Shown: one piece after another, positions 27,001 through 36,000 of the stretch
How the letters are laid out: every line of letters begins with the position of its first letter
How positions within the stretch are numbered: the stretch's first letter is position 1
From: a plasmid
DNA: 64,000 bases
Strand: one strand, 5' to 3'
Assembly (NCBI RefSeq): GCF_056712565.1
Contig: NZ_JBWXXM010000003.1
Position numbers: made by a program

Positions 27001-30000
27001 GTGTTTTTGAGGTGCTCCAGTGGCTTCTGTTTCTATCAGCTGTCCCTCCTGTTCAGCTACTGACGGGGTGGTGCGTAACGGCAAAAGCACCGCCGGACAT
27101 CAGCGCTATCTCTGCTCTCACTGCCGTAAAACATGGCAACTGCAGTTCACTTACACCGCTTCTCAACCCGGTACGCACCAGAAAATCATTGATATGGCCA
27201 TGAATGGCGTTGGATGCCGGGTAACTGCCCGCATTATGGGCGTTGGCCTCAACACGATTTTACGTCACTTAAAAAACTCAGGCCGCAGTCGGTAACCTCG
27301 CGCATACAGCCGGGCAGTGATGTGATTGTCTGCGCTGAAATGGACGAACAGTGGGGCTATGTCGGGGCTAAATCGCGCCAGCGCTGGCTGTTTTACGCGT
27401 ATGACAGTCTCCGGAAGACGGTTGTTGCGCACGTATTCGGTGAACGCACTATGGCGACGCTGGGGCGTCTTATGAGCCTGCTGTCACCCTTTGACGTGGT
27501 GATATGGATGACGGATGGCTGGCCGCTGTATGAATCCCGCCTGAAGGGAAAGCTGCACGTAATCAGCAAGCGATATACGCAGCGAATTGAGCGGCATAAC
27601 CTGAATCTGAGGCAGCACCTGGCACGGCTGGGACGGAAGTCGCTGTCGTTCTCAAAATCGGTGGAGCTGCATGACAAAGTCATCGGGCATTATCTGAACA
27701 TAAAACACTATCAATAAGTTGGAGTCATTACCGTGCACGGTAACGGGCCATATCAATGAGCAGTTCCTCTCCAATTTTATTTGCCCCTAGAGAGCGGCGA
27801 GTTTTCTTCACTTCAATGACAATCTTCTCTTTCTTCAGAAGAAAATCCTGTCTGGATGATGAACCTGCGAAGCTAGGTGAATTTTCTTCAGGTCTGACAT
27901 CATTAAAATGCAGCAGCAGAAGAGCATGAACAAGATCCTGTACATCATACTCGTCATTAATTTCAAGCGGCGTTCTGTCATTGTATCGTTGCTTTAATTG
28001 ACGACAAAAAGCTGGAAATTTATTGAGTATATTTATAATCAAATCCAGTTCGGCATGTTTTGTTGCTATAGTCGATGCCGTGCCGGAGTAAGTTAAATCG
28101 TCTCTGGCTGCATCAAAAATAGGTTTGTAATGTCTAACCAATCCCTGATAATTACTAGACCAAGCAATCCTTTGTGTATCATTAAAATCTTTGTAGTAAT
28201 CAGATTCCTTTCCATAACTGTCTTCAAGTAACTTTTTTGCTCTTGCAATCCAGTTATTACCTTTAGCCGAATCAATATATTCCTGGCTTCTGTGACTAAA
28301 TGCACTTGTTCCCATATATTTTGTCGACATGACAGAATTGTACTCTTGTTCAAGCACTTCAAATCTTTCAGCTAAGGTCTTCTTCGTCATAGCGCAATCC
28401 AAATTATATGCTAATAATACCTGTGAATTTTAATATTCTACCATATCTGGCTTTCTTCCGTTCACATTGGACATTCAGGTAATTTCGTCCAGTTCTGCTG
28501 GCTGTGCTGGAGCTAGCCTGGTATAATTTAACCAGCCATTTCAACAGCGGTGGTGTCTTATGAACGTCAAGAACATGTTTTACGGTGCCATTCTGGTAAG
28601 TGCTGTATGGGCGGTTATTTTGCTCTCATGGTTTGAATCCAGCCTTACCTTAAGCGATTACCTCAGGTACGAATCGGTAATCCTGATCCCATGCCTGCTG
28701 TGGGTTGCTGTTTATGGGTTAGGTAAACGTTACCTCCAAAGAACATCAAACTAGCCGCGCCAGCGACTTTTTTTACACCTTCGTTTAATTCCCTGGCTCA
28801 CCTGGACAGCCAGGGAATTCTGCCCAGCGCTACTGGCTTGCTGTGCCAAACTTTCCGTTGCAGATTTCCTCATTCACAATGGCCTGAAACATGGAAACAG
28901 AATTTCTAGCCTTATCCCTCAGTGCATTAATGAGTTCTGTGTCGTGTATTTTGTTGTAGAAAATGAAAGTAGAAACATCAAACTGGAGTTTAAATGCTGC
29001 TTTCCTTATGGCTAAACCTGACGTGATCGTTATCTCATTATGTATGCGAAGATAGGCAAGATAATCATCGTTATTTGCTTCACACTGCTCATATAAATAT
29101 TTTTGCATGAGAGATTGAGACAAGGCCAGAAATTCCACATATCGTTTGGTTTTTATTTCTTTATCTTTTAATCCCTGTACTGCCGCTTCTTTTTTTAATT
29201 CGTGCTTTTGTGTTAGCTTAAGAGTCAGCCACCCCCCTAAAATAGTCAGCAACGACCCCAAACCTATTTTTACGGCATTATCAGCCACATCCACCCACTC
29301 AGTCGCCATCTGTTACTCGTTCTTCCTGTGATGATCATGGTTGCCAGTATAATTCCAGCACAGACTGGACGTACAGCATTTTCTGTCCAGTAGACAGACT
29401 GTTACACTCAGGATAGGATAGCTTCTATGGTTAAATTTCCAGGTGAAGTTATGAGTTCGTCCGCTGCTGTAACCGTTATAACTGGTGTTCTTGTTTTTGT
29501 TGGTGGTCAGCTCATTGTAAAGAGCGCGATTGAACCTTATATAGAATTCAAGAAACAATTGGGAAAAATATCAAATCTGCTATTAGCTAACCAAGCTAAA
29601 TTAGCTAATCCTTGTGCTGTTGAAATGTCTGAGATCATCCATGAGTTGAAAGATGCCGCAGCTCAGTTAATGTCGAAGCATTCAGCTTTGCCTTTCTATA
29701 TCAAAAAATTCCATATCGGATTCCGCTTTGTTCCATCAACGCCTGAAATTATTAGTTCGGCGCAAAAATTGAATTTGATAGCATCAATACATGAAGGTAA
29801 AAGCAAGGAAAGTACATATGAGCACATAGCCGAGATTGGACGTATGCTCAAAATCCCAACCACCTATTCTCTTTAATCTTCACGCCGATCAGATTACATA
29901 ATCCACGCGCCACCTGGACATTCAGGTAAAAAAGTCCAACTGGTGAGGTTGGGCTTTTTGGCTTTCCGGTTCTGTTGGTGGCTATGACCGGAGAAAATTG

Positions 30001-33000: not shown

Positions 33001-36000
33001 ACTGTAAAATAACAAATCATCTAAACGCCAGCTTTGTATTGAGCGCGTTGGCCAACGCCTTTATCAGCTGCGACCGCACCAGATAATTTGAATAAGATTT
33101 CCCGCATCACCTGGACATACAGGTTATTCTGTCCATACCTCATTAGTTACAACATTCACGCGTTCTGTTCCTTTATCCGGTGCCCTGTTCCAGTATATGT
33201 GCCCATATCCTGGGTTATTCAGGATAACCGCTTCCTTTTCGCCCTGTCCTGTCGTTCATATCCCCCTGGACAAAAATGCATTATCGGAAAAAATGTCCAA
33301 AATTTTTTTGGTGATCGGAATTTTTGTTGTCGGACGCACCTCTTCTTCAGGTCATAATTGCTGACACATCCCAAAAAACAGGAGCGGAGATTTAAAAATT
33401 GAGTCACTTACCCGCCAAAATTTTCCAGATTTCACGTAGCGTACCGTCGATACTGTATCCATCAACAAATGACTATTTTTTGAATGTGTCATTTCCTGTA
33501 ACCTACTGAAAAATATCAGTGAATGACAATATCGGCGACAGCATCGGAGCTGATAGCCAGTTTCCTGAATGCATATGGCCAGAACAGTAAATTTGAACCA
33601 GGTTCTCACGTCACCAGGCGACGTGTCTGGGAAACTGGTGAACAACAGGCACAGAAAAGCCCAACTTTATGGGGGTCAGTTCAGTGAGGTTGGGCTAAGA
33701 GAAACGAATGATTAACCTGTTAATCATCATTCTCAGGGATGTGGTCGCCGTTGCAAACGCGCGGATTGCAGTTCTGGAACTGATTCGCCAGTTCATCGTT
33801 TGATGACAGCGGAAACGTAACTCAGGACAGGAAGTTCCAAATAGCTCCCAGCCAGCATATGTAATTTTCAAAGGGGCAGTTGTTAACTCTGTAATAACGC
33901 CATGTAAAGTATTCCTGCCCCCTCCATGATCCTCCATAGTATTTCTTGAGTTAATTTTCAAAAAGCTTCTGATGGTGATGCTGCCAACTTACTGATTTAG
34001 TGTATGATGGTGTTTTTGAGGTGCTCCAGTGGCTTCTGTTTCTATCAGCTGTCCCTCCTGTTCAGCTACTGACGGGGTGGTGCGTAACGACAAAAGCACC
34101 ACCGGACATCAGCGCTATCTCTGCTCTCACTGCCGTAAAACATGGCAACTGCAGTTCACTTACACCGCTTCTCAACCCGGTACGCACCAGAAAATCATTG
34201 ATATGGCCATGAATGGCGTTGGATGCCGGGCAACTGCCCGCATTATGGGCGTTGGCCTCAACACGATTTTACGTCACTTAAAAAACTCAGGCCGCAGTCG
34301 GTAACCTCGCGCATACAGCCGGGCAGTGACGTCATCGTCTGCGCGGAAATGGACGAACAGTGGGGCTATGTCGGGGCTAAATCGCGCCAGCGCTGGCTGT
34401 TTTACGCGTATGACAGTCTCCGGAAGACGGTTGTTGCGCACGTATTCGGTGAACGCACTATGGCGACGCTGGGGCGTCTTATGAGCCTGCTGTCACCCTT
34501 TGACGTGGTGATATGGATGACGGATGGCTGGCCGCTGTATGAATCCCGCCTGAAGGGAAAGCTGCACGTAATCAGCAAGCGATATACGCAGCGAATTGAG
34601 CGGCATAACCTGAATCTGAGGCAGCACCTGGCACGGCTGGGACGGAAGTCGCTGTCGTTTTCAAAATCGGTGGAGCTGCATGACAAAGTCATCGGGCATT
34701 ATCTGAACATAAAACACTATCAATAAGTTGGAGTCATTACCGCCTTGACCATCAGATAGTTATTTTGGTGCTAGGGATACTGAGTGTGAACAGTTAGCGC
34801 GCGTCCTCGCCAGTTAGCTCGCTACGCTCGGTTACACGACGGCTACGAGTACTAGTGATAATTATTGACTGAGGTATGTGCTCTTCCTGTTTCCTTTTTT
34901 GATGTGTTGCTCTCATTTTAAACAACTTTGCGGTTTTTTGACTACTTTGCAATTTTGTTGTTGCTTTGCAATAAAATGCAAGATTAAATGAAAATATGCA
35001 AAGCAATGATTAAAGGATGTTCAGAATGAGACTCATGGAAACACTTAACCAGTGCATAAACGCTGGTCATGAAATGACGAAGGCTATCGCCATTGCACAG
35101 TTTAATGATGACAGCCCGGAAGCGAGGAAAATCACCCGACGCTGGAGAATAGGTGAAGCAGCGGATTTAGTTGGAGTATCTTCTCAGGCTATCAGGGATG
35201 CCGAGAAAGCAGGCCGGCTACCGCACCCGGATATGGAAATACGAGGACGGGTTGAGCAACGTGTTGGTTATACAATTGAACAAATTAATCATATGCGTGA
35301 CGTGTTTGGTACGAGACTACGACGTGCTGAAGACGTATTTCCGCCGGTGATTGGAGTTGCTGCTCATAAAGGGGGCGTTTACAAAACCTCTGTTTCTGTT
35401 CATCTTGCTCAGGATCTGGCTCTGAAGGGATTACGTGTTCTGCTCGTGGAAGGTAACGACCCCCAGGGAACAGCATCGATGTATCACGGCTGGGTGCCAG
35501 ATCTTCATATTCATGCAGAGGATACTCTCCTTCCCTTCTATCTTGGGGAAAAGGACGATGTCACTTATGCAATAAAGCCTACTTGCTGGCCTGGGCTTGA
35601 CATTATTCCTTCCTGTTTGGCTCTGCACCGCATTGAAACTGAGCTAATGGGCAAATTTGATGAAGGTAAATTGCCCACCGATCCACACCTGATGCTCCGA
35701 CTGGCCATTGAAACCGTCGCTCATGACTATGATGTCATTGTCATTGACAGCGCGCCTAACCTAGGTATCGGCACGATTAATGTTGTATGTGCTGCTGATG
35801 TGTTGATTGTCCCCACGCCTGCTGAGTTGTTCGACTACACTTCCGCTCTGCAGTTTTTCGATATGCTTCGTGATCTGCTCAAAAACGTAGATCTTAAAGG
35901 ATTCGAGCCTGATGTACGTATTTTGCTTACCAAATACAGTAATAGTAATGGTTCTCAGTCCCCGTGGATGGAGGAGCAAATTCGGGACGCCTGGGGAAGC

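Follow-up and report, generated by a model that had tools for sequence, protein, structure and literature searches.

A repeated 26-bp core at cassette boundaries of IncX-type and IncF plasmids, a putative site for a ResD-like tyrosine recombinase

Acinetobacter pdif modules are discrete units (toxin–antitoxin, resistance and others), common to different plasmids and bounded by short sites; these are XerC/XerD sites of the 11-6-11 format, alternate in orientation and are served by host recombinases. Integrons likewise hold cassettes, from none to n, between co-oriented sites at a platform where the tyrosine recombinase gene lies beside a primary site. The rfsF-ResD pair is treated as a plasmid resolution system and is a reported point of gene-set switching in IncI1 and IncR plasmids (PMC8004404, PMC9412624), and the CUP repeats of IncN plasmids, bound by ArdK, are promoter/operator elements repeated at several gene boundaries of the accessory or leading region (PMC6289460). 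Here we describe an intergenic repeat in a 64,000-nucleotide (nt) stretch of plasmid DNA (contig NZ_JBWXXM010000003.1 of assembly GCF_056712565.1; hereafter the window), where it is confined to an island between two direct copies of the insertion sequence IS1. Comparison with related plasmids suggests, on balance, that its 26-bp duplex core is a recombination site that separates gene cassettes in a plasmid-borne array and on which an adjacent recombinase acts.

The initial annotation of the window listed three copies of a 19-nt motif with an ACCTG-N6-CAGGT dyad and, at a fourth place, its first half; all four sequences lie where it put them. Exact matches to the degenerate 19-mer occur at 29911–29929 and 33108–33126, against 0.02 expected, and none of 100 shuffles reached two. 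The copy at 28463–28482 falls outside this pattern because it has one base more than the 19-mer consensus. A 13-mer, TGGACATTCAGGT, is identical in this copy and the one at 29915; its pattern has three matches where 0.19 are expected, a count that again none of 100 shuffles reached, and the motif is thus commoner than chance allows in AT-rich DNA. The half motif, CACCTGGACA, is exact at 28799–28808, inside the loop of a 12-bp hairpin. Repeat finding and a scan of the window for TGGAC-N14-GTCCA (seven matches, 1.96 expected) stretch the element to 24–26 nt and add copies at 28802 and 29365, the latter (29365–29390) previously overlooked. The 19-nt repeat therefore forms the centre of something longer, a 26-bp core with the consensus CTGGACATTCAGGTNATTCTGTCCAG plus conserved flanks, which together we call the unit.

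The window holds five core copies, all intergenic, on the + strand and within 28467–33136, and a profile search with these copies returns no further match across the 64 kb at E < 3, in agreement with the earlier claim that the copies are intergenic and restricted to the island. W1 (TTGGACATTCAGGTAATTTCGTCCAG, 28467..28492), which contains the first copy annotated, lies at the junction of a cassette with a restriction endonuclease (REase)-fold gene and one with a small membrane open reading frame (ORF), a junction that recurs in pCRTS (L012_12000) and L023_7000. W2 (CTGGACAGCCAGGGAATTCTGCCCAG, 28802..28827) separates the 64-amino acid (aa) ORF cassette from a 159-aa cassette, and W3 (CTGGACGTACAGCATTTTCTGTCCAG, 29365..29390) separates the latter from a 149-aa cassette. 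W4 (CTGGACATTCAGGTAA, 29914..29929) is a half core, positions 1–16 only, in a broken unit joined to the terminator of an AgrB-like small RNA (sRNA); it contains the second annotated copy, and the same junction is found in complete form at L011_12673. W5 (CTGGACATACAGGTTATTCTGTCCAT, 33111..33136), containing the third, is the last array site and adjoins a replication terminator (Ter) and the upstream region of a recombinase gene.

We aligned 44 distinct cores. Conservation is near-complete across the core (C1 T2 G3 G4 A5 C6 A7 T8 T9 C10 A11 G12 G13 T14 N15 A16 T17 T18 C19 T20 G21 T22 C23 C24 A25 G26); position 15 is fully degenerate, and position 1 is C or T, which presumably would fit deamination at the Dcm site CCTGG. 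The sequence to the left is usually TTTAATTCCC, often preceded by a T-run terminator. Some units have, on their right side, TTCTGCTGGCTGCGCGGGATCTGGCCTGGTATAAT, an extended −10 promoter with a small ORF behind it. In the window such a promoter-like right extension, TTCTGCTGGCTGTGCTGGAGCTAGCCTGGTATAAT (28493..28527, + strand), has the extended −10 element TGGTATAAT at 28519–28527 and leads into the 64-aa ORF; it is kept in pKpQIL-type, C. freundii and E. ludwigii units, and its sequence leads us to infer promoter activity. One left-flank type has open frames across the core, but these shift between copies, and the core is thus not coding. Rfam holds no family for the unit, only AgrB-like sRNAs close by. 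Comparison by eye with known consensuses gave no fit to a LexA box, a sigma-54 promoter, the MqsA palindrome, Xer arms, gamma-delta res half-sites or Chi.

Two inverted repeats overlap in the core. The outer one, CTGGACA/TGTCCAG, is paired in 89% of cells of the alignment, shows no compensatory change and is matched or exceeded in pairing by 497 of 500 shuffles; its pairing stems from conservation, not covariation. The inner ACCTG-N6-CAGGT dyad, which the initial annotation pointed out, is not the conserved feature: it is paired in just 68.6% of cells, less well conserved than the outer pair, its covariation score was reached by 133 of 500 shuffles, and it is absent from the TTAGACA and TTGGACA core types, which include the platform site described below. 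As single strands, W1, W4, W5 and the platform site fold no more stably than their shuffles (z from −1.1 to +0.3). The diverged right half of W2 and its left flank do form the 12-bp hairpin (28787–28819; −13.1 kcal/mol, z = −4.1) whose loop holds the half motif, but this structure is specific to the W2 copy and lacks a T-run. A terminator scan listed W5 weakly; a strong hairpin is found in W2 only, and a terminator-like structure is not a family-wide property. Because the dyads are conserved without covariation and no single-stranded fold is shared, the element looks like a duplex protein-binding site; a hairpin or attC-like structure was rejected on pair counts and folds.

BLAST searches find the unit in 1073–1460 plasmids of PLSDB, the majority of them conjugative, from Escherichia, Klebsiella, Salmonella, Enterobacter, Citrobacter and Serratia. 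Where matches are partial, the core is shared and either the left or the right flank differs. In complete E. coli genomes, 972 of 986 unit places are on plasmids; the element is plasmid-specific. An exact-pattern scan of 185,579 species-representative genomes gave four matches, about chance level, with one true homologue, on a plasmid-like contig of Intestinirhabdus alba; two matches in a gammaproteobacterial metagenome-assembled genome are coincidences in coding sequence. On the I. alba contig the unit (L002, 6148–6351) lies ∼140 nt upstream of a Hha-family gene, and ORF translations indicate a replication initiator-like gene and an IS91-type transposase gene. Units may be dense: a pKpQIL-type plasmid has four in tandem between small ORFs, and a C. 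freundii IncFII plasmid (L010) has at least 10, at almost every gene boundary over 7 kb. Within a locus they are strictly co-oriented (47 of 47 units in 12 loci), with genes on either strand. A rule by which units follow the transferred strand is true of IncF/IncI-like loci and apparently reversed in IncX4, and was dropped as a general explanation. In L010 a Tn5053/Tn402-like tniABQ-res transposon (16536–22242) sits between the last unit, which it adjoins, and the serine resolvase gene of the plasmid; transposons of this kind are 'res-site hunters', and the end of the L010 array may adjoin a res site.

To compare arrays we cut about 20 loci at their cores and clustered the segments. We label the hns-side backbone D, the Ter–int side A, the dqlB-side left flank x and the cassettes B, C, E and F, with a dot for unclassified segments. 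IncX4 plasmids have the order topB-hha-hns-hypothetical gene, array, perfect Ter core, ∼250 bp, the gene for a 274-aa tyrosine recombinase (int) and partition genes. Empty platforms have a single core ∼290 bp upstream of int, as in the cassette-free L020 and L021 (D-A); H193 and H194 have 337 nt more, one cassette. Longer arrays read x-C-A in pLSU61-2 (L022), D-B-C-E-A in both pCRTS (L012) and an ST131 plasmid (L023), D-C-B-.-.-A in L009, and B-C-E-F-.-A in the window, where A is a relic. Related plasmids thus carry zero, one, three or five cassettes at the platform, in differing order and with a core at each boundary. Cassettes B and C are swapped on the same backbone (L009 against L012 and L023), F occurs with different neighbours in the window and the IncX1 plasmid L011, another cassette is common to L011 and the IncFII plasmid L010, and L010 has one 344-nt cassette tandemly duplicated. 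A query across the empty platform matched 520 plasmids, 100 of them contiguously, and two listed examples have a 337-nt cassette; in the non-contiguous remainder the int-side match starts within the core.

The window breaks its homology to these plasmids at the same places. Positions 27733–29390, three cassettes, match pCRTS at 99.76% identity over 1658 nt up to the last base of W3; the match restarts, at 89% identity, at 33111, the first base of W5, and the window array has cassettes beyond those of pCRTS. Homology to the IncX4 int-side flank begins at 33111–33112, and the match to L009 stops at 28482, position 16 of W1. The earlier suggestion that the motifs mark cassette junctions is therefore borne out, as homologous plasmids differ by units bounded exactly by the element. 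We consider the junction role of the element well supported.

The cores also record where exchange occurred. At every junction examined, positions 1–15 track the left neighbour and positions 19–26 the right neighbour. The left part is TTAGACATACAGGT(C/G), that is TTAGACATACAGGTC/G, next to D, TTGGACATTCAGGTA next to B, CTGGAC(A/G)TACAGCAT (also written CTGGACRTACAGCAT) next to E and CTGGACATACAGGTT next to x; the right part is T(T/C)GTC(C/T)GG before C, CTGTCCA(G/T) before A and CTGCCCAG before E. Position 16 (T in E-type cores) goes with the left neighbour, which places the exchange within A16/T17-T18/C19. For example, W5 (an x-A core) combines the left 15 nt of the x-C core of pLSU61-2 with the right part of the C-A core of the same plasmid, the pattern expected of a precise loss or gain of cassette C. 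Similarly, the half-sites W4 and L009_9240, both joined to unrelated DNA, break between positions 16 and 17. These junctions would be consistent with a site in which 9-bp arms, CTGGACATT and TCTGTCCAG, flank an 8-bp spacer and strands are exchanged at the right-hand edge of the spacer. A recombinase core site, as proposed in the initial annotation, is the best reading of the element, with the crossover placed at positions 16–18, 3′ of the ACCTG-N6-CAGGT dyad, and not in its 6-nt spacer.

The candidate enzyme is encoded next to the array. The IncX4 recombinase (WP_001353741.1, 274 aa) matches only the Phage_integrase catalytic domain in Pfam and scores far under the XerC, XerD and IntI cut-offs. 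NCBIfam integron-integrase models (cut-offs 265 and 435) give 54.7 and 39.1 bits and match only the C-terminal catalytic region; distant relatives in the PDB are a XerC-like protein and IntI4 (phmmer E = 1.3e-8 for IntI4). Homologues of ∼45% identity, among them IncI/IncF proteins annotated as 'site-specific integrase', are found in at least 5000 plasmids. The IncX4 gene lies beside parA/mipZ and is labelled resD in OX341605.1. The unit and a homologous CTGGACA-N19-21-TGTCCA dyad adjoin int in three lineages, namely IncX4, a 65%-identical locus on an IncFIC/FII Salmonella plasmid (L018) and a 45%-identical pKpQIL type (L006). No units were found at one Hafnia int locus or upstream of one IncI ResD gene, and the latter region has no core-like motif. 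The window also encodes an intact, RepFIB-associated recombinase paralogue (6771–7478, + strand), 47% identical to the pKpQIL-type and 42% to the IncX4 protein; its upstream region has no TGGACA-type motifs.

Directly right of the last core in the window lies a perfect Ter core, ATGTTGTAACTAA (33143..33155, − strand), a Tus-binding replication terminator found at the same position in L007, L009, L011, L012 and L020–L023. The same string is printed in the Tus-Ter literature (PMC4499146). As Ter directly follows the last unit here and in the IncX4/IncX1 plasmids examined, the cassette array abuts the plasmid replication terminus. Given the polarity of Ter, it would stop replication forks that arrive from the int/rep side. 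The recombinase upstream region continues with a 7-7-7 dyad, TATCCTG-GGTTATT-CAGGATA (33206..33226, unstranded), which is conserved in L009 and resembles the left part of the core (CCTGG..TTCAGG), and a second dyad, CTGGACA-N21-TGTCCA (33266..33299, unstranded), which has the same heptamer as the core arms (two matches, 0.10 expected). The int gene itself survives only as a relic (33399..33441, + strand), a TTG start and ∼14 codons, cut at ...CAGATTTCACG where a dqlB module, the second in the island, begins. Over 33112–33441 the window is 90% identical to L009 (11992–12322), in which the 274-aa gene is intact (12280–13104).

We propose that the ancestral platform, intact in IncX4-type plasmids, comprised the hns-side backbone, one core, Ter, ∼250 bp and the gene for the ResD-like recombinase. 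The enzyme would bind the imperfect inverted arms CTGGACAT and TCTGTCCAG and exchange strands at A16/T17-T18. Recombination between two cores would excise a cassette that carries one hybrid core, and recombination of this cassette with a core of that plasmid or of a different one would insert it; sites in one orientation and arrays of varying cassette number and order would result. The narrow crossover interval, the half-sites on foreign DNA, the strict co-orientation, the empty and filled platforms and the synteny with int argue for site-specific exchange catalysed by the adjacent recombinase, and the core is probably the target of this small plasmid enzyme. The window array (REase-fold, 64-aa ORF, 159-aa, 149-aa, mixed block, then last core–Ter–int stub) would have been caught between two IS1 copies on a ColV plasmid. 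With int cut to 14 codons, its sites are probably relics without activity, unless they are served in trans by a related recombinase.

Several observations sit poorly with this proposal. The int gene of the pKpQIL type is inverted relative to its units, the int family, in its at least 5000 plasmids, is far broader than the unit, and an adjacent intact recombinase of the clade is missing from many unit-bearing plasmids (IncX1, IncF arrays next to sopAB, and the window). The half-unit L010_10125 starts at position 21, not 17. The arms are symmetric at only seven of nine positions and would imply an 8-bp spacer with exchange at a single boundary. The sample of about 20 loci is also small. Moreover, crossovers arising through short homology would be expected to favour the core as well, where conservation within the unit is highest.

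That last point belongs to the main rival, short-homology exchange at a conserved transcription signal. Here the unit would be mainly a terminator, a conserved upstream element and a promoter that together insulate neighbouring modules, and the modules would be shuffled as a side effect of RecA-dependent or short-homology recombination between the repeats, with no dedicated recombinase. Many units do start just after a T-run terminator, some run through an extended −10 promoter into a small ORF, arrays are kept in plasmids without an adjacent int, and unequal homologous exchange yields tandem duplications such as that of the L010 cassette; as the longest block common to all units, the core would gather crossovers anyway. 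We nonetheless regard this explanation as less likely than the recombination site. Partner units often share only ∼20–26 bp with mismatches, a poor RecA substrate, and crossovers fall within one 3-nt interval, not over the 60–110-nt unit, even where the flanks are homologous. The W4 and L009_9240 breaks joined to unrelated DNA are likewise unexpected, the change between B-C and C-B requires insertion and could not come about by deletion alone, and units stay co-oriented whatever the orientation of the genes.

This indifference to gene direction also bears on the shared operator suggested in the initial annotation, which fits poorly. On this explanation a single plasmid or host regulator of the island genes would bind the core, as ArdK binds CUP repeats in IncN (PMC6289460) or KorB its operators in IncP. 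In its favour, the core is a near-palindrome of 26 bp kept at gene boundaries, and in some units a −10 element follows ∼30 bp downstream. However, units do not follow the genes, which in L010 are mostly on the opposite strand, the promoter part is present in a subset only, the core is centred near −55 and not over the promoter, the IncX, IncF, IncI-like and ColV contexts examined have no regulator gene in common, and the factorial pattern of left and right junctions is left unexplained; we consider an operator improbable. Still less credible to us is an element that works as a folded single strand, whether an attC-like hairpin, a single-strand initiation signal or a single-stranded DNA promoter, on the transferred strand or the lagging-strand template. 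The overlapping inverted repeats, the strict co-orientation and the position of IncF/IncI-like units on the presumed transferred strand would suit it, as would Ter orientation, which suggests that the + strand is the lagging-strand template in IncX4. Neither stem covaries, the folds other than that of W2 do no better than shuffles, and the non-transferred strand is apparently where IncX4 units lie. That the motif recurs by chance in AT-rich DNA, for which only its original shortness spoke, is refuted by the shuffle controls and by conservation of the element in more than 1000 plasmids with unrelated flanks.

Set against the described systems, the recombination site that we favour comes close to ResD/rfsF of F, IncI1 and IncR plasmids, in which a small plasmid tyrosine recombinase is also encoded beside partition genes with its site close by; the relationship to the IncI 'site-specific integrase' and the resD label agree. 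Unlike rfsF, the core occurs as direct repeats, up to at least 10 in number, that bound discrete cassettes, arrays not described for rfsF in the literature searched, and its sequence differs, judging from one IncI ResD upstream region. The likeness to integrons lies in the platform with a recombinase gene beside the primary site, in empty platforms, in co-oriented sites that bound a variable number and order of cassettes, and in a crossover at one fixed point with TT next. The recombinase is not IntI, however, the core is conserved in sequence rather than in attC-like hairpin structure, int is transcribed away from the array and not divergently, and several cassettes have their own promoter, with genes in both orientations. 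As in pdif modules, short sites bound modules shared between plasmids, but the core consensus has no GGTGCGCATAA- or TTATGTTAAAT-like Xer arm and its orientation is always direct. CUP repeats share the conserved intergenic placement at several gene boundaries; they are oriented with the genes, whereas our units keep one orientation, only some of them have a promoter part, and it is within them that one plasmid ceases to match another.

Each ingredient, whether the tyrosine recombinase, the core site or the cassette array, is of an already known kind. Literature searches by sequence string and by concept returned no description of the repeat or of ResD-type cassette arrays, and the paper on the IncX4 'variable region' names no sites. 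We raise, tentatively and with rather less confidence than the recombination site itself, the possibility that enterobacterial IncX-type plasmids, and the IncF and ColV plasmids to which parts of them were passed on, possess an undescribed integron-like capture system in which a ResD-like recombinase inserts, excises and reorders cassettes at the core beside the replication terminus.

The island in the window matches ColV/pS88-type IncF plasmids of E. coli at 99.7–100% identity. According to the pS88 annotation it is bounded by two direct IS1 copies (26965..27732 and 33974..34741, both + strand, ends approximate), whose terminal repeats were also found by repeat search; sitABCD flanks it on one side and sopAB on the other, and a truncated PD-(D/E)XK nuclease gene, four hypothetical genes and two DinQ-like type I toxin genes (dqlB) lie between. 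The nuclease gene (27733..28402, − strand), its 3′ end cut off by IS1, encodes a DpnII/MboI-type REase fold (Pfam PF18742, E = 1.6e-33) and matches the PADLOC Aga helical-REase model (E = 4e-23). RefSeq calls this gene and its homologues in L007, L009, L010 and L012 'malate dehydrogenase', 'peptidase M14' or 'hypothetical protein', probably misannotations. The predicted membrane ORF of 64 aa (28560..28754, + strand) belongs to a cassette also present in L009, L012, L022 and L023. Hypothetical proteins of 159 aa (WP_000190053.1; 28830..29309, − strand) and 149 aa (29427..29876, + strand) follow; the 149-aa cassette also lies between two cores, with other neighbours, in E. albertii pESA136_2 (98.8% identity over 29349–29925).

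The 3.7 kb from W3 to W5 hold this 149-aa cassette, an AgrB-like sRNA relic, a 500-aa gene and a dqlB module. The antisense sRNA gene whose terminator abuts W4 (29926..30012, − strand; Rfam RF02891, 46 bits, gathering score 40) has no toxin gene adjoining and looks like a relic joined to the half-site; a second copy (32389–32477, − strand) scores 64 bits. Just downstream of the relic is a tandem repeat of ∼5 copies of CCTTTAACG (30052–30095), with a related single copy at 32924–32940. The AT-rich 500-aa ORF between W4 and W5 (30502–32004, + strand) has no match in Pfam, NCBIfam or PADLOC and may be an uncharacterised defence or accessory gene. Right of W5, past Ter, the two dyads and the int stub, the island ends with the second dqlB module and IS1. 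Both dqlB modules (genes at 32790–32885 and 33708–33803) open with the same left end, CAGAATTCACGTAGCG (32162–32205 and 33426–33469), and the int-stub/dinQ fusion is also present in IncX1 plasmids; DinQ-type modules seem to insert at one fixed point. Across the loci examined, cassettes carry the DpnII/MboI-type REase fold, AbiD, PD-T4-4 A+B (PADLOC), a NACHT protein, DinQ-like toxins with AgrB-like sRNAs and small membrane ORFs; phage-defence-like genes, type I toxins and small ORFs make up most of the cargo.

If the cores do work as recombination sites, the island in the window would be explained as a decayed IncX-type cassette array held between IS1 copies, and the known 'variable region' of IncX plasmids would likewise find its explanation. 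The core would serve as a sequence tag for finding plasmid-borne defence cassettes, and ResD-type resolvases would take on gene capture in addition to multimer resolution. A dedicated route for trading small cassettes, independent of integrons, insertion sequences and transposons, would be open to conjugative plasmids of E. coli, Klebsiella and Salmonella, among them the IncX4 family that spreads mcr-1. Such a route would be a second, mechanistically distinct cassette platform spreading defence genes among clinical plasmids.

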